Program-made: the position numbers and the translations under genes | Assembly (NCBI GenBank): GCA_032249395.1 | Contig: JAVVFY010000001.1 | Location: 77,476-141,475 of the forward strand | Length of the DNA: 64,000 nucleotides | Origin: Candidatus Aenigmatarchaeota archaeon | GTDB lineage: Archaea; Aenigmatarchaeota; Aenigmatarchaeia; CG10238-14; SpSt-28 | Direction: 5' to 3' | Part shown: piece after piece, positions 3,505 to 32,475 of the stretch | How positions within the stretch are numbered: the first letter of the stretch is position 1 | Layout: every line of letters starts with the position of its first letter | The notes under the pieces: model-generated | Told to the model about the DNA's origin: nothing | Seen by the model: the letters and a program-made list of their open reading frames with translations, nothing else | Database searches by the model: none

Positions 3505-4665
3505 ATGATAGAAGTTGGTTTAATTGGTAAACCAAATGCAGGCAAATCTTCTTTTCTTAAAGCAGCCACATTACAAGATGTTAAAATTTCTCCAATACCA
3601 TTCACAACACTTAAACCAAACATAGCTTTAGCTTATGTGACAAAAGAATGTGCTTGTAGAGAATTTAACGTTAAATGTAATCCCAGACAAGGAGCTTGTA
3701 TAAACGGAATAAGATTTGTTCCAATTGGTTTATGGGATTTGCCAGGAATTGTTCCTGGAGCCCATGATGGTAGAGGTTTGGGATTGAAATTTTTAGATGA
3801 TATAAGAAAAACAAAAGCCTTAATCCATGTTGTGGATTTTTCTGGTTTGACAGATGCAGAAGGAAAGCCAACAGAAAACTATGATGTAGAAAAAGATATA
3901 AAGTTCGTTGAGGATGAAATAAACAATTGGTTTAGAGAGGTTATTAATAGAGGACTAGAAAAATATAAAAGAAATTTAAAAAATCTTTCAAAAGAAGAAC
4001 TAGTTGATATTTTAGTAAAACAGTTAAGCGGCTTAGAAGTAAAGAAGGAAGATATAGAAAAAACTTTAGATGCAGTTGGAATAGAAAATTTAGATGAATT
4101 TTCCAAAAGTTTAAGAGAAATTTCTAAACCAATTGTCATAGTTGCAAATAAAATAGATTTGGAAAGTGCTCAAAAAAATTATGAGAGAATAAAAACCAAA
4201 TACAGAAATATAATTCCTGTTAGCGCGGAGAGCGAAATTGCTTTAAGACTAGCGAGTAGTAAGGGTTTGATTGAATATTTTCCTGGAGATAGGGATTTTA
4301 TCATTAAAGGCAATTTAAGCAAACAACAAGAAATGGCTCTAGAGTTAATAAGAGAGAATGTATTAAAAAAGTTTGGTTCTACAGGAATACAAACTGCATT
4401 AAACTACACAGTTTTTGAAGTATTAAAATATATAGTTGTTTACCCTGTCGCTGATTCAAGCAAGCTTACAGATACTAAAGGAAATGTTTTGCCAGATGCT
4501 TTTCTAGTTCAAAAAGGTACTACACTAAAAGAATTTGCATTTTATATTCATACGGATATTGGAGAAAAGTTTATTTGTGGAATAGATGCAAGAAGCAAAA
4601 AGAGATTGTCAGCAGATTACGAACTTAAAGATAATGACGTTTTCGAGATAATATACAAAAAATAA
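3505..4665 (+). CDS. ychF: YchF/OBG-family translation-associated GTPase with TGS domain
   Basis: GKPNAGKS, PFTT, DLPG, GRGLG, NKID, C-terminal HTD/TGS. Confidence 0.9.
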   Translation: MIEVGLIGKPNAGKSSFLKAATLQDVKISPIPFTTLKPNIALAYVTKECACREFNVKCNPRQGACINGIRFVPIGLWDLPGIVPGAHDGRGLGLKFLDDIRKTKALIHVVDFSGLTDAEGKPTENYDVEKDIKFVEDEINNWFREVINRGLEKYKRNLKNLSKEELVDILVKQLSGLEVKKEDIEKTLDAVGIENLDEFSKSLREISKPIVIVANKIDLESAQKNYERIKTKYRNIIPVSAESEIALRLASSKGLIEYFPGDRDFIIKGNLSKQQEMALELIRENVLKKFGSTGIQTALNYTVFEVLKYIVVYPVADSSKLTDTKGNVLPDAFLVQKGTTLKEFAFYIHTDIGEKFICGIDARSKKRLSADYELKDNDVFEIIYKK

Positions 4666-5542: not shown

Positions 5543-5585
5543 TTTATTTTTTTGTTTGTGAAATTAAAACCATTTGAAAAATAAA

Positions 5586-5677
5586 TGGGCTCGGTGGGAT
5601 TTGAACCCACGACCCCCCGCTTTCTTAGGAGCATCGCCATATAAGGCGGGTGCTCCACCAGGCTAAGCTACGAGCCC
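5586..5677 (-). tRNA. tRNA-Ile(UAU) with 18-nt intron at 37/38 (5622-5639)
   Basis: GGGCTCG/CGAGCCC acceptor stem; CCCGC-CT-TAT-A[intron]A-GCGGG; canonical BHB with CTTA/TAAG helix and TAT and AAA bulges; TTCAAAT T-loop. Confidence 0.9.
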
Positions 5678-5733
5678 ATTTTTAAAATTTTTGATAAGCA
5701 TTATTTATTTTTTAATACATACATAATAGTAAA

Positions 5734-7828: not shown

Positions 7829-7924
7829 AACTACTTTTAAGTAGTTTAAATTTAAATGTCTCTCTTAATAAAGACATCAACAAATATTTAATATTTATTG
7901 GGAGAATTTTAGAATGGTGAGAAA

Positions 7925-10284
7925 ATGAAGTTAGAGCCTAAGCTTGAGGAAATAAGGTGGAATATAGCAAAAGAAAAGGAAATACTTGAAGAATGGGCCA
8001 AGAGAAAAGTTTATAAGTTTGAATTAAATAATAAAAAAGTCTTTTCTATAGACACGCCACCTCCCTACCCGAGACCATTTTAAATGGCGGTAATGGGAGG
8101 CCGTGGCACGTAGGTGCAGCTTCTCACTACTCTCAAATAGATATGATTGCTAGAGCAGCTCGAATGTTAGGTTTTTCTGTTTATTTTCCAATTGGTATGG
8201 ATAGGAATGGAATACCGGTAGAAAGATACGCAGAAAAGAGATTTAATATAAACATAAATTCTACTCCACGAGAAGAATTCTTAAAGTATTGTAAGATGGC
8301 TCTAGATGAACTAGAAAAAGAAATGATTGAAATAATGAAAAGACTTGGATTAAGCGGAGATTTTGATAATTATTATAGAACCGATAGCGAAGAATACAGA
8401 GCTTTAACACAAGCAACTTTTATCGAACTTTGGAATAAGGGTTTAATTTATTTTGATACTCGACCAAACAACTATTGCCCAGTTTGTAAAACAACTATCG
8501 CTGATGCTGAAGTTGTTTATGAGGAATTGCCGACCAAATTGGTTTATATTAAGTTTAGAACGACAGATAATGAAGAATTCATAGTAACAACCACAAGACC
8601 AGAACTTTTATGTGCATGCCAAGCGATTTTAGTTAATCCCGAAGATTCTAGATACAAGCATTTGGTTGGTAAAAAAGCATTAATTCCACTATATAATAGA
8701 GAGGTACCAATTTTGGCACATCCTATAGTTAAAATTGATTTTGGAAGCGGAATAGAAATGGTTTGCAGTTACGGTGATTATAATGATGTTATGCTATTTA
8801 GAGAGTTAGGTTTGAAGGAAATTGTATCAATAGATGAAGACGGAAGAATGACGGAAGCTTCAGGGAAATATGCAGGTTTAAAAGTTGAAGAGGCTAGAGA
8901 AAAAATTATTGAAGATTTAACGAATGCAGGTCTCATTGTTAAGGTAGATGAAATAATACACAGAGTACCCACTTGCGAGAGAAGCCACAACCCCATAGAA
9001 ATAATTCCTATGCAAGAGATTTACTTAAAGCAAATAGAATTTAAAGATAAGATGATGGAAATTGGAAAAGAATTAGAATTTTTGCCAGAATTTCATAGAC
9101 AACTTTTATTGAATTGGATAAATTCTATAACAAGGGATTGGCCTATATCTAGGAGAAGATATTATGCAACGGAAATCCCTATTTGGTATTGTAAGAAATG
9201 TGGCAAGCCGCATATTCCAAAACCAGGAAAATATTACATCCCTTGGAAAGAGAAAGCACCATTCGAGAAATGCGATAATTGCGGTTCGGGAGAATTTTAC
9301 GGAGAAACAAGAACTTTCGATACCTGGTTCGATTCTAGTATAACACCCCTATTTATCTCTAAATTTGGTAAAGACGAGCAATTCTTCAATAGAGTTTTTC
9401 CTGTAACAGTGAGACCACAAGGAAAGGATATAGTTAGGACCTGGCTATATTATACTTTACTAAGATGTTATCAATTAACTAATAAAAGGGCATTCGAAAA
9501 AGCATGGGTTAGTGGCTATTGTGTAGATGAAAAAGGAGAGAAGATGAGCAAAAGTAAAGGAAATGTTATTGATCCTGTTCCTTTAATTGAAAAGTATGGG
9601 GCCGATGCATTTAGATTTTGGAGTGCAAGCGAATCAAGCTTAGGCTTCGACTTTAGAGCCAGCGAAAAAAGAGTAGAAAATGCATATAAATTTATAACAA
9701 AGCTATGGAATATAGCGAGATACGTTTCTCAATTCCCGATAATAGAAGAATTTGATGAAACAAAACTTTTGCCTAGCGATAAATGGATTTTAAGCGAGTT
9801 AAGAATAGCATATGAGAAATGTATAGATGGCTATAAGAAGTTCAATTTTTTCATTCCTTCTAATTGTATGAGAGAGTTTCTATGGAACTTATTTGCTTCT
9901 AATTATGTAGAAATGGTTAAAAAGAGGGCCTATGGTGAAGGTTTTAGCAAAGAAGAGCAAAAAGCCGCGTGGTATACTTTACATAAAGTCATGAAAATTT
10001 CTTTAAAGCTACTCGCACCAATAATACCTTTTATAACTGAGTATATTTGGCTTAAGTTGTATAGCAAAGATAGCCTTCATACTCAAAAATTCGACGATAA
10101 GATAGAGGTGGAAGACTTTTCGAAATATACTTCCATTTTATTGGAGTTTAACTCGTTAGTGTGGAGAAAGAAAAAGGAGTTAGGCATTAGCCTAAAGGAG
10201 AGAATAAAAATTGAAATTCCCGAAGAGCTAAAGATATTTGAGAATGAACTAAGAATTATGCATAATATTGATACTTCTACTTAG
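7925..10284 (+). CDS. valS: Valine--tRNA ligase; exon 1 7925-8073, intron 8074-8093, exon 2 8094-10284 (779 aa spliced)
   Basis: GGTGA SD before ATG 7925; spliced FSIDTPPPYPSGRPWHVG (HIGH region), GMDRNG, TTTRPE, WPISRRR, DTWFDS, KMSKS. Confidence 0.9.
8074..8093 (+). other. Putative 20-nt BHB/BHL-type mRNA intron in valS
   Basis: ACCATTTTAAATGGCGGTAA; contains in-frame TAA and shifts frame; removal restores the conserved motif; splice sites AG|A and AA|T flank a CCG/CGG helix. Confidence 0.85.
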
Positions 10285-12369: not shown

Positions 12370-12470
12370 GCCCGGGTGGCCGAGTGGCGAGGCAACCGGC
12401 TGCAGACTGGTATTTTGATTGAATGATAGGTAAATACCGGTTTACAGGGGTTCGAATCCCCTCCCGGGCT
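12370..12470 (+). tRNA. tRNA-Cys(GCA) with 30-nt intron (most likely 37/38, 12406-12435)
   Basis: GCCCGGG/CCCGGGC acceptor stem, U73, ACCGG-CT-GCA-G..A-CCGGT, TTCGAAT T-loop. Confidence 0.9.
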
Positions 12471-23767: not shown

Positions 23768-26554
23768 TTATCCTAAAATTCCATAACCAACTAATCTCCA
23801 TCTTCCAGCAACTTGCCTCAAAACAGCTATTTTTGTTTTTACACCTTGTTCAAATATCAGTGGAATGCTCAACTGACAACTTATAAAGTTCTTTCTTGCT
23901 TCTTTAACAACACCAACACTTCTTTGATTTGCTAAATGAATCAAAATCTTTTCCCCAATTTTTATTGGAGGCAAAGCTTGAATTTCTCTAGCTCCATAAA
24001 CTCTCTCAAACTCGAAATACTCAAAACTTATTTCATGAGTCTCTTTTGGCAATGTTCCCTTCAAACCAACAACACTTCCAACTAGACCATCAGCTTTCGT
24101 TAAGCTTGGATCTAGTTTTGTTAGAACACCAAGCAATCCTCCTGGACCAGCTTCTTTTATATCTTTATTAGCTTTTCTCAATCCAACAATTTCAGTTTCT
24201 AAAGGCTGATATTTATTTTCAATTTTTATTCCAGGTTTAATTTCTATATTGTCGCCAACTTTAAGTCTTCCTTCAACAACACTTCCCCCTAAAATTCCAC
24301 CAACAATTTTATCTATCTCTGTCCCTGGTTTATTAACATCAAAGCTTCTTATAACTAAAAACTTTGGATTTTTAGTTTCATCTCTTTTTGGTGTTGGTAT
24401 ATACTTCTCTATAGCTTCAAAAACTCTATCAATGTTAACTCTTTGAGTAGAAGAAACAGGAATTATTGGAGCATTTTCCGCAATTGTTCCTTTCACAAAT
24501 TCCTTAATCTCTTGATAATTCTTCAAAGCTTGTTCTTTTGTTATAGTATCAATTTTTGTTTGAACAATAACAATTTTATCAATACCAACAATTTCCAATG
24601 CTTTCAAATGCTCAACAGTTTGAGGTTGTGGGCATTTTTCATTCGCAGCAATAACAAGTAAAGCACCATCTATAACACCAGCTCCCGTTAGAACAGTTGC
24701 TGTTAGAATTTCATGACCAGGAGAATCCACAAAACTAACAGTCCTTTGAATTTCTGTATCTGCAAAACAAAAAGGACATTTCTTGCTGTTAGAATATCTT
24801 CCACATTGAGGACATTTATAAATTGTAGCATCAGCGTATCCAAGCTTTATAGTTATTCCTCTTTTCAATTCTTCAGAATGTTGCAAGGTAAGCTTTCCTG
24901 TTAAAGCTTGAACTAAAACTGTATTGTGCAGAAGGAAGAAACCTAAACCTCCAAAGAAAGTGTGAGTTTGGGGAACACTCAAATCAAAAATTATTTCATC
25001 TTTCACTTCTTCATACTCAACTTTCTTAACTTTTTCCACTCTCAAACTACCAAAGTAAAGAGTTTTAATCCTTTGTATTTCTTCTTTAGCCTCCCTTATT
25101 TTTTCATTCAAATAATTCCTAAGCAATTTCAAAGCTTTCTTGTCTTTTCTCTTAACCATTCTCGAGAAAGAAGTAGGTGGTATATTAGTAGTTATTGCTA
25201 CCTTCCTGAGCGGAACGACTTTTTCTAAATCTTCGTCTTTTAAACTACCCAAAAATTTAATTCTTTCTTCAACAAACTCGATAATTCTTTCTAGCAACTC
25301 ATAGGTGATTCTCCCTTTTTTCCTGACCTCCTCTATTGCTTTGTAAATCTTTTGCTTCTTAAATCCGTCACCTTTTCTTTTATCGTTAATAAGAAGGAAA
25401 GTTAACCTCTTAATGTTTTCTTTATCCATTTTTATAGAGTCGTATGTTTTCATTCTTGTCTTATGATTTTCAAAAAGTTCTAAAAGTTGTAAAGCCTTTA
25501 ACTTCTTTTTTCCCTCCAGCCCTATTTCTTTTAGAAACTTTTCTGCCTCTTTACCATATAATGCCAACCTGAAATATTCTTTACCCTTAACTTTCCTCTT
25601 ATAAATTTTAGGAAATATTCCAAATTCATATAAAGAAATTAAGATGAAATTAACCAAAGTTTGAGATACTTGAGACAGTTCTATCCCTCTAGCCTTGAGG
25701 TTTATATGCCCGTCTAAAGAGAAAAACCACTTAAGATAAGTTTTTCTGAGTTCTTTTGGTAAATATAAAAACCAACCCTTTAAGCTTTTGCTACTTCCCC
25801 CCAAGATCTTCTTAAAATAATAGAAAGCTATTTTAGGTTGTATTATGTAGTCTTTCCCCTTTTCCAAATGAAAAGAATAACCTAGTGAGCTTAAATATTC
25901 TAACACTTCAGTTAGCATTTCCTTTTCTTCTTTTTGAGATAACATCAATCTCTTTCCTACATGTCCTTCTGCATTAATGAAGGCCAACAATTTTACAAAA
26001 TCTTCATCCAATTTAAATCCCTTTACTTTTGCTTTCTTACCATTCTTAAAAACAATCTTGTAAAACTCTCCATCTTTTTCCAATATCTTACAAAACTCCT
26101 TTATGTTTTCCTCGAAGTCTATTTGCTTCTGAGCTTCCTGAATATTTGAATTTAAATTTATCCTTCCGAGCACAAAAACCTCATCTCCTTCTTTAATTTC
26201 TGATGCTCTTCTCCATTCACATCTACCATTCTCGTGAACTAAAAGAGGATGATCTGGCGAAACTTCCACCTCTCTTCCATTAGAGGTTGTGATTTTTACA
26301 AGCTTACCAGAATACCTTTGAAAGAATCTTTTAGCTTCGCCCACATATATTTTCCCATTGTCATCCAATGTATATGTCCTTATTTTGTCATTTTCTAGAT
26401 AAACCTCATCTTTAAAATTAGGAATACCTGTTAGCAACTCTTTACCAGTCAAAATTTCGTTGTTTAGCAAAATAGGTGTATTTATTCTTACACACTTCCC
26501 ATGGCTTACGTGACCCAAGACGCCTATGTTAACCTCTGGTAATTCTTTGTCCAT
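23768..26554 (-). CDS. eif2g: Translation initiation factor aIF2 gamma, intein-containing
   Basis: GHVSHGK|intein|TVLVQALTG, EELKRGITIKLGY, DSPGHE, QPQT.EH, RSFDVNKPG, WRLVGYG. Confidence 0.95.
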   Translation of the reverse strand: MDKELPEVNIGVLGHVSHGKCVRINTPILLNNEILTGKELLTGIPNFKDEVYLENDKIRTYTLDDNGKIYVGEAKRFFQRYSGKLVKITTSNGREVEVSPDHPLLVHENGRCEWRRASEIKEGDEVFVLGRINLNSNIQEAQKQIDFEENIKEFCKILEKDGEFYKIVFKNGKKAKVKGFKLDEDFVKLLAFINAEGHVGKRLMLSQKEEKEMLTEVLEYLSSLGYSFHLEKGKDYIIQPKIAFYYFKKILGGSSKSLKGWFLYLPKELRKTYLKWFFSLDGHINLKARGIELSQVSQTLVNFILISLYEFGIFPKIYKRKVKGKEYFRLALYGKEAEKFLKEIGLEGKKKLKALQLLELFENHKTRMKTYDSIKMDKENIKRLTFLLINDKRKGDGFKKQKIYKAIEEVRKKGRITYELLERIIEFVEERIKFLGSLKDEDLEKVVPLRKVAITTNIPPTSFSRMVKRKDKKALKLLRNYLNEKIREAKEEIQRIKTLYFGSLRVEKVKKVEYEEVKDEIIFDLSVPQTHTFFGGLGFFLLHNTVLVQALTGKLTLQHSEELKRGITIKLGYADATIYKCPQCGRYSNSKKCPFCFADTEIQRTVSFVDSPGHEILTATVLTGAGVIDGALLVIAANEKCPQPQTVEHLKALEIVGIDKIVIVQTKIDTITKEQALKNYQEIKEFVKGTIAENAPIIPVSSTQRVNIDRVFEAIEKYIPTPKRDETKNPKFLVIRSFDVNKPGTEIDKIVGGILGGSVVEGRLKVGDNIEIKPGIKIENKYQPLETEIVGLRKANKDIKEAGPGGLLGVLTKLDPSLTKADGLVGSVVGLKGTLPKETHEISFEYFEFERVYGAREIQALPPIKIGEKILIHLANQRSVGVVKEARKNFISCQLSIPLIFEQGVKTKIAVLRQVAGRWRLVGYGILG
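24923..26494 (-). mobile_element. Intein (524 aa) with LAGLIDADG endonuclease in the aIF2-gamma P-loop
   Basis: Starts CVRINT; block B VSPDHPLL; LAFINAEG and FFSLDG endonuclease motifs; ends FDLSV...LLHN before T. Confidence 0.93.
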
Positions 26555-31392: not shown

Positions 31393-32475
31393 ATGATAGT
31401 TAGAGAGTTGATGACAAAAAACGTTTACACTCTTAAAAAAGATGATACAGTTTCGAAGGCTATTTCATTAATGAAAGAAAAGAGATTTCACCAAATACCT
31501 ATAGTGGATGAAGAATATGAAGGAATGGTTTTCTTAAAAGAGTTAATAAAGTCTAGAGGCGATCCCACAAGGACGAAACTGGAGAATTTCATAATTTATA
31601 CACCAGTTCTTAGAGAAAGAATGGGAATCGAAGAAGCAGTAAAAATTTTAGTAGAAGCTGGGTTGCGTGCTTTACCAGTAGTTGAAGAAGATAAAATTGT
31701 TGGAATATTGAGCGAAACAGATGTTGTATTGAAATTAAAAATTAAAAGATTTAATGAAATCAATGCTTCAAACATTATGAATAAACCAATAGTTGCAAGA
31801 GAGGAAGAAAAACTTAAAACTATTCTTAGGATTATGCAGAAAAATAACATAAGCTCAGTTCCTTTAATAAATTGGAAGGAAGAACTTTCCGGTTGTATAA
31901 ATCTTTTCACTTTAGCTAATTTTCTTTATAAAGAGAAAGAAAGAATAGAATCTTTTAGATTAGCCAAAGAAAGAGAAAATATTTTAAATTCGCCTGCAAA
32001 AAACTTTTCATTTTTTCCGCAGATTATAGATAAGAACGATACACTGGAAAAAGTAGTAACTCTCTTTAAATACGGAGAAGAGGTAATAGTTACAGAAAAT
32101 AAAAAGCCAATAGGAATAATAAAACCAAGGGATGTATTAGAAATTCTAGTAGTTAAAGAGACCATACCAATAATAGTTGCTGGTGTTGAAGAAAGAGAGA
32201 ATATAATAAGTTTTTTTGAAAGAAAATTAGAAAAGTTTAAAAGGCTTGGAGTAGAAAAAATAATTGCTCAGATAGAAAAAATTGGAGCTAGAAACAAATA
32301 CGACGGGAAAATAAAAATTATTATCAAAGGAGAAAGTTTAACGGCACATTCTCAAGCGTTTGATATTTACTCATTGTTAAGGGATATGAAGGAAAAGATC
32401 GAGAGAGAAATAGAAAAGAGAAAGGGGAAAATTAAAGTAAGAAGGAGGAGAATACTTAAAGCAAAAGGTGAATGA
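31393..32475 (+). CDS. Four-CBS-domain protein with possible C-terminal HPF/RaiA-like domain
   Basis: Four CBS motifs; C-terminal ~95 aa with beta-alpha-beta3-alpha pattern and basic tail. Confidence 0.75.
   Translation: MIVRELMTKNVYTLKKDDTVSKAISLMKEKRFHQIPIVDEEYEGMVFLKELIKSRGDPTRTKLENFIIYTPVLRERMGIEEAVKILVEAGLRALPVVEEDKIVGILSETDVVLKLKIKRFNEINASNIMNKPIVAREEEKLKTILRIMQKNNISSVPLINWKEELSGCINLFTLANFLYKEKERIESFRLAKERENILNSPAKNFSFFPQIIDKNDTLEKVVTLFKYGEEVIVTENKKPIGIIKPRDVLEILVVKETIPIIVAGVEERENIISFFERKLEKFKRLGVEKIIAQIEKIGARNKYDGKIKIIIKGESLTAHSQAFDIYSLLRDMKEKIEREIEKRKGKIKVRRRRILKAKGE

Follow-up and report, generated by a model that had tools for sequence, protein, structure and literature searches.

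A 20-nt insert in the valS gene of a small archaeon as a candidate mRNA micro-intron of the bulge-helix-bulge type

In archaea, the splicing endonuclease EndA recognizes a 3-nt bulge followed by 3 to 4 base pairs (bp) and cuts two nucleotides into each loop. The intron of the cbf5 pre-mRNA was reportedly the subject of work by Watanabe in 2002 and by Yoshinari in 2006. Crenarchaeal cbf5 introns (Desulfurococcales and Sulfolobales) often have a relaxed bulge-helix-bulge (BHB) motif, and their patchy distribution has been read as gain and loss and linked to non-homomeric endonucleases; cbf5 splicing was shown experimentally (Yokobori 2009, PMC2738675). Relaxed motifs, that of the cbf5 pre-mRNA included, are described in two papers as being cut by hetero-oligomeric or loop-bearing broad-specificity endonucleases (PMC5829648, PMC2738675), and the available portions of EndA papers of 2018 and 2025 cite only cbf5 work for pre-mRNA. 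The literature that we searched, subscription journals being outside its coverage, named no archaeal protein-coding BHB intron other than that of crenarchaeal cbf5, and held no paper on BHB introns in DPANN archaea, valS or infB. Here we describe a 20-nt insert in valS, the gene for valyl-tRNA synthetase (ValRS), in a 64,000-nt stretch of contig JAVVFY010000001.1 from a Candidatus Aenigmatarchaeota archaeon (positions 77,476 to 141,475, forward strand; hereafter the window, in whose own numbering coordinates are given). Its anatomy and its counterparts in related genomes suggest that positions 8074-8093 are very probably spliced out of the valS pre-mRNA by EndA and RtcB.

An interrupted valS gene

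The window belongs to a metagenome-assembled bin (G000) of a small hot-spring archaeon of the DPANN type, with 752,806 bp in 25 contigs and a completeness of 89.5%. The parts of the valS locus are the following.

7916..7920, + strand: Shine-Dalgarno-like GGTGA, 4 nt ahead of the valS start codon (from the sequence)
7925..8073, + strand: valS exon 1, 49 codons and the AG of a Ser codon (open reading frame list, positions 5-49 of profile NF009687, orthologue alignment)
8074..8093, + strand: 20-nt insert, proposed BHB-type micro-intron (orthologue comparison, homologous inserts, independent DNA contig)
8094..10284, + strand: valS exon 2, with the third base of the divided Ser codon, 729 further codons and a stop codon (877 bits to NF009687)

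Read from ATG 7925, the first open reading frame (ORF) of valS covers 7925..8083 and ends in ...DTPPPYPRPF followed by an in-frame TAA (8081-8083), so that an unspliced transcript would terminate at this stop, inside the insert, after 52 codons. The remainder of the gene lies in another frame, open from 8029, with a ValRS match running from GGG 8095 to 10284. When 8074-8093 is left out, the gene becomes 2340 nt long, that is, 779 codons and a stop, and the insert is seen to divide a Ser codon (AG|T). The NCBIfam valS model NF009687 gives the same picture, the N-terminal piece matching profile positions 5-49 and the downstream piece continuing from position 53 with 877.5 bits, against a cut-off of 738. 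The sequence, the ORFs and the joined 779-codon frame, as claimed in the initial annotation, were thus all reproduced, and the insert is a real, frame-breaking feature of valS.

The insert is also present in DNA from elsewhere. A 3979-nt contig of DNA run X5 spans 7925-8400 with four substitutions and no gap, and it carries the 20 nt; the sample of this run is none of the possible source samples of the genome, although it shares its study with one of these. A sequencing or assembly artefact, or a functionless strain-level lesion, could be suspected in a metagenome-assembled bin of 25 contigs, and run X5 also contains intron-less-looking relatives (with a loose end before 8123). Given the gap-free insert in a contig from another sample, and homologous but different inserts in independent assemblies of six other species and in one metagenome contig (see below), we regard the probability of such an explanation as practically negligible. 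The insert 20-mer has a single match in the 752,806 bp, searched on both strands with up to 4 mismatches allowed. Lacking further genome copies, it is not a dispersed repeat, and a MITE-like (miniature inverted-repeat transposable element) mobile element, which requires such copies, was rejected.

Split genes are known in DPANN archaea, and the DNA as it stands does present two ORFs, as expected if valS were a decaying pseudogene or were expressed as a 52-aa N-terminal piece and an internally started C-terminal piece. We consider this very unlikely. An intact second valS was looked for in the 89.5%-complete genome and only this one was present, the remaining matches being the paralogous enzymes for Ile, Leu and Met. 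Beyond the insert, valS is intact and has a score of 877 bits to the valS model. The downstream frame contains no ATG, GTG or TTG between 8029 and 8142, and a start at 8143 would remove the WHVGAA segment, which belongs to the HIGH region of ValRS. Finally, the interruption divides a Ser codon and is kept, with a conserved structure, in seven species.

Homologous inserts and their predicted fold

Of the 30 orthologue loci returned from 41 related genomes, 28 were uninterrupted and read DTPPPYPSG(R/K)PWH(V/I)GAA or a variant of it, the two exceptions being the window and G033. All eight genus mates (G001-G008) lack the insert, which is therefore carried by one of nine species of the genus. An order-wide search, with the intact N-terminal part of the orthologue from genus mate G006 as query, covered 118 genomes, 108 of which had a valS match; seven of these were interrupted at the same site.

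G000 (window), family f1, genus g1: 20-nt insert
G064, family f2: 23-nt insert
G115, family f2: 22-nt insert
G083, family f2, genus g15: 21-nt insert
G033, family f2, genus g15: 21-nt insert
G057, family f2: 19-nt insert
G072, family f2: 22-nt insert

An eighth allele, with a 21-nt insert at the same site, was found in a metagenome contig (L289). Insert lengths span all three phases and every one of the eight contains an in-frame stop, so that no single recoding, frameshift or read-through event could rescue all alleles, while excision could. A class-wide protein search gave no further interrupted valS among the best 150 of 344 matches listed. Pattern scans of genome and metagenome contigs, from which the eighth allele came, used a pattern too permissive for such large collections and were uninformative on distribution, as 237 of the 238 loci listed were chance matches, mostly bacterial. 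Separately, the valS of G077 (L063 / L073, G077:C101:1969-2547) has one in-frame TAA within its first 197 codons, with its length unchanged.

The minimum free energy (MFE) fold of the RNA of 8050-8112 has -22.9 kcal/mol (z -2.5; 3 of 200 shuffles were equally good) and contains the following elements.

8056..8065, + strand: 5' strand of the exon-exon helix, pairing in the MFE fold with 8095-8100 and 8104-8107 (GCCA/UGGC plus CCUCCC/GGGAGG)
8069..8071, + strand: 5' strand (CCG) of the central helix H, pairing in the MFE fold with 8088-8090 (CGG); the fourth position is a C8068 x U8091 mismatch
8072..8074, + strand: 5' bulge AGA of 3 nt in the MFE fold, with the predicted cut at 8073/8074 (from the BHB rule and restoration of the frame)
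8075..8087, + strand: inner hairpin CCAUU / UUA / AAUGG in the MFE fold, arms 8075-79 with 8083-87
8091..8094, + strand: 3' loop UAAU opposite UAC (8066-8068) in the MFE fold, with the predicted cut at 8093/8094; a relaxed, not strict, 3' bulge

Of the in-frame TAA (8081-8083), two bases close the loop of the hairpin and the third opens its 3' arm. The 5' half of the fold is a proper helix-bulge-helix. The window valS does not fold into a strict hBHBh' motif, in which a 4-bp helix separates two 3-nt bulges, one on each strand. The relaxed motif of the HBh' type has an intact 3-nt bulge between H and the inner helix at one splice site, the other site lying in a loop at the symmetric distance, and its arrangement of H (3-4 bp), 3-nt bulge and inner helix is present in all seven genome alleles. 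In six of these the inner helix is 4-6 bp long, and in G057 it is limited to 2 bp. Helix H reaches 4 bp in two alleles, G064 (with a U.G pair) and G072, the latter with a full AUCC/GGAU central helix and a 6-bp inner helix.

All seven genome alleles share the MFE architecture, and when the cuts are set two nucleotides into the bulges, the junction reads Y-P-S-G-R in every one of them. Five alleles (type A) split the Ser codon as AG|U and two (type B) as A|GU, with a 1-nt shift. The helices change in compensation, in what are few and related sequences. In the inner helix, three alleles have C-G and two have U-A at pair 1, and at pair 4 U-A, G-C and A-U all occur; the exon-exon pair at alignment columns 12/51 is U-A in five alleles and G-C in two, the latter switch consisting of a synonymous Pro change (CCU to CCG) together with Arg AGR to CGU. 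In the alignment of the alleles (A1), 87.9% of cells were paired and the covariation score was 0.148, values that 0 of 500 shuffles reached in either case, with 33-49% of cells paired in slid controls. Most of the unpaired cells come from the type B rows, both of which sit one column out of register in this alignment.

The codons that form the helix also set the interrupted alleles apart: the combination of Thr ACG, Pro CCA and Gly GGG is found in 7 of 7 intron alleles, compared to 1 of 44 intron-less ones (G036). Over most of its length, the window valS is nearer to those of the genus mates; between about 8053 and 8095, the intron alleles of family f2 are nearer (83-92% identity, versus 57-83%). 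By sequence comparison, this flank similarity would fit either selection for the splice helix or co-conversion at a lateral gain.

The initial annotation had described a tRNA-type intron of the BHB or bulge-helix-loop (BHL) kind, and each helix that it named was recovered in the MFE fold, including the AGA bulge. It had placed both cuts two nucleotides into 3-nt bulges, which holds at the 5' site; the 3' site proved to be an asymmetric internal loop, UAC opposite UAAU, instead of a 3-nt bulge. The type of motif found is the relaxed one (HBh' or BHL-like) that its wording allowed. Its two expectations for the orthologues were borne out as well, since these read PSG(R/K)PWH at the site, with presence/absence variation and precise borders, and since the helices covary.

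The alleles bear on another way in which the gene might be expressed uninterrupted. In translational bypassing of the kind known from phage T4 gene 60, take-off and landing codons match and a stop follows right after the take-off codon. Here, ribosomes could take off at AGA 8072-8074, skip the hairpin and the stop, and land on an AGG or AGA after the insert. The five type A alleles do have AGA directly before the hairpin and AGR just after the insert (AGG in two, AGA in three), with the stop and the hairpin in between. Type B alleles, however, have no matching in-frame take-off and landing codons, and the stop comes three codons after the take-off codon instead of directly behind it. The bypass product would also lose the Ser-Gly that all uninterrupted PSG(R/K)PWH orthologues keep, and bypassing leaves unexplained the 3-nt bulge, helix H, the exon-exon covariation and the exact orthologous junction given by the BHB rule. 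We thus find bypassing highly improbable.

A second interrupted gene and the splicing enzymes

The initial annotation had suggested that mRNA micro-introns have been overlooked in this lineage, and a genome comparison found one with an anatomy like that of valS. We compared the whole genome of genus mate G006 with G000 (ORFs of at least 80 aa, tblastn both ways, a design that introns common to both genomes would escape). Two G000 genes were interrupted relative to G006: valS, by 20 nt, and aIF5B/infB, by 32 nt.

G000:C9 about 24557-24588, + strand: BHB-like 32-nt insert in aIF5B/infB, splitting the P-loop VGHVDHGKTTLLD at G|K

In the aIF5B insert, the inner helix is 9 bp long, the central helix consists of 3 bp and one mismatch, and the bulges are AAU and AAA; in G000 the two-nucleotide cut rule restores the P-loop VGHVDHGKTTLLD exactly, with an H-G-K-T junction. 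Inserts at the same site were found in five further genomes: G001 (32 nt), G005 (31 nt), G028 (18 nt), G094 (18 nt) and G082 (27 nt), of which the G094 allele, read by hand, does not fit the cut rule cleanly. Four other candidates (G030, G027, G043 and G101) proved intact at the site, and for a further five (G013, G113, G020, G011 and G078) the motif search gave no decision. An in-frame stop (TAA or TGA) lies within the first five insert codons in 8 of 8 valS inserts and in 6 of 6 confirmed aIF5B inserts (read at 8081-8083 of the window and at L067-L072, L289, L118, L119, L125, L126 and L129), so that the unspliced mRNA would terminate at once.

Other searches of the genome yielded less. Scans that started from structure, joining a BHB motif with ORF fusion (62 loci, or 291 under looser settings), returned besides valS mostly AT-rich gene junctions and out-of-frame chance ORFs; owing to a requirement for 40 open codons upstream, the first of these scans did not pick up the aIF5B intron. 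Two further length differences to G006, 215 nt extra at G000:C6 about 32078-32316 and 43 nt extra at G000:C3 about 4350-4419, are intergenic and were discarded as introns. We checked metK, cbf5 and rtcB of G000 and found no interruption in them. The window has four tRNA genes, of which two, with lengths of 92-101 nt (12370-12470 on the + strand and 5585-5678 on the - strand), probably bear introns; in a hand reading, the first has a putative intron of about 30 nt after position 37, with an AG|A 5' bulge as in valS. A region conserved at nucleotide level in several frames (G000:C13 about 950-1320 and G006:C1 about 383,980-384,660) has 31 and 62 extra nt in G000 and 226 extra nt in G006, inserts that may be rRNA introns. 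Unrelated to introns, the reverse strand of G000:C3 contains one open frame some 34 kb in length (55203-89507, about 11,400 codons), a giant gene with a 35%-identical counterpart in G006.

The genome encodes the enzymes that splicing would need, as had been expected. Two EndA paralogues are present (G000:C2 at 53.6 kb, 223 aa, and G000:C3 at 60 kb, 400 aa), both with the N-terminal and the catalytic domain (PF01974, PF02778), together with one RtcB (PF01139, 573 bits). The 400-aa paralogue shows a weak additional C-terminal match to the catalytic domain.

With these enzymes, valS splicing would probably proceed as follows. The exon sequences coding for TPPP and for GRPWH would pair with each other, the intron would form its own 5-bp hairpin, and a 3-bp helix would link exon 1 to the 3' part of the intron; both exon-intron borders would thereby come to lie in unpaired loops, as in tRNA introns. 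EndA would then cut after G8073 and after A8093, and RtcB would join the exons, producing the AGU Ser codon and the 779-codon ValRS frame.

Several points weigh against this mechanism. The motif departs from a strict BHB, with an H of 3 bp and a mismatch in five of the seven alleles and, in type A, two extra unpaired nucleotides opposite the 3' cut site. The fold predicted for the window sequence by itself is only mildly better than chance, with a z of no more than -2.5, and it is the comparison with the seven other alleles that lifts the valS observation above chance. In that comparison, three pairs changed on both sides, a count that 16 of 500 shuffles also reached; Pro (CCN) and Gly (GGN) codons by themselves impose part of the exon helix; and, with just 7-8 alleles, related to one another, the shuffle statistics overstate the support and are indicative only. 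As to the enzymes, the EndA of G000 is known at the level of its genes. Finally, no spliced RNA was seen: in the assembled contigs of RNA runs X18, X19 and X20, none, spliced or unspliced, crosses 8027-8103.

Removal at the RNA level by something other than EndA and RtcB, either another nuclease and ligase or self-cleavage, would account for the same alleles. It gains some room from the 3' site, which departs from the strict BHB, and from the role of EndA here being deduced from sequence. The geometry is nevertheless what EndA measures according to the BHB rule, and the anatomy in aIF5B is alike. Relaxed motifs are, moreover, accepted by broad-specificity EndAs according to two papers (PMC5829648, PMC2738675). 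We therefore judge such other removal unlikely, and splicing by EndA and RtcB remains our preferred explanation of the valS insert.

One RNA contig deserves separate mention. A 135-nt contig of run X20 represents a closed 105-nt cycle, running from 8094 to about 8198 and back to 8094, and it starts exactly at the predicted first base of valS exon 2. It could be a cleavage fragment circularised by RtcB or an artefact, and as a hint it is weak.

Origin of the inserts and comparison with known systems

All eight genus mates lack the insert, and only about 25 nt on each side of it resemble the intron alleles of family f2; for these reasons the valS intron of G000 may have been gained from this distant family. 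Tentatively, and aware that it may well prove wrong, we propose a wider picture, of which this gain is part. The order might carry laterally moving micro-introns of 18-32 nt in the codons of catalytic motifs of translation genes (the HIGH region of valS, the P-loop of aIF5B), each with an early in-frame stop and with exon codons chosen or co-converted for the splice helix, and the production of core translation factors would thereby be tied to the tRNA-splicing enzymes.

If these introns are what they appear to be, valS and aIF5B would be the second and third host genes, both of them essential for translation and from another superphylum, and the action of the tRNA-splicing machinery on mRNA would be more than a crenarchaeal oddity. 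Annotation pipelines will label such genes as frameshifted or as pseudogenes, so that inferences on completeness and metabolism in DPANN archaea would undercount them. The presence/absence pattern, taken together with the similarity of the exon flanks, would also offer a case in which prokaryotic intron gain can be tested.

Archaeal tRNA introns with a relaxed BHB (HBh', hBH, BHL) at non-canonical positions, cut by broad-specificity EndA (PMC5829648), resemble the valS insert in their presumed enzymes, cut geometry and size range. In contrast to them, the valS substrate would be an mRNA whose outer helix consists of coding sequence and whose reading frame has to be restored. Like the cbf5 introns, the valS insert is short, lies within an archaeal coding sequence, has a relaxed BHB and a patchy distribution, and must be removed for the ORF to be restored. 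It differs from them in its host genes (valS, and aIF5B for the second insert), in its DPANN-type genome of 0.75 Mb, in the size of the introns (19-23 nt in valS), and in its location within the catalytic HIGH-region motif. It is carried by one of nine species of its genus, with its nearest relatives in another family, and, unlike cbf5, for which splicing is experimental, it is known here from DNA sequence. Overall, the comparison suggests a presumably cbf5-like mechanism acting in a new host gene, in a new lineage and on introns of very small size, with a distribution that points to recent gain.

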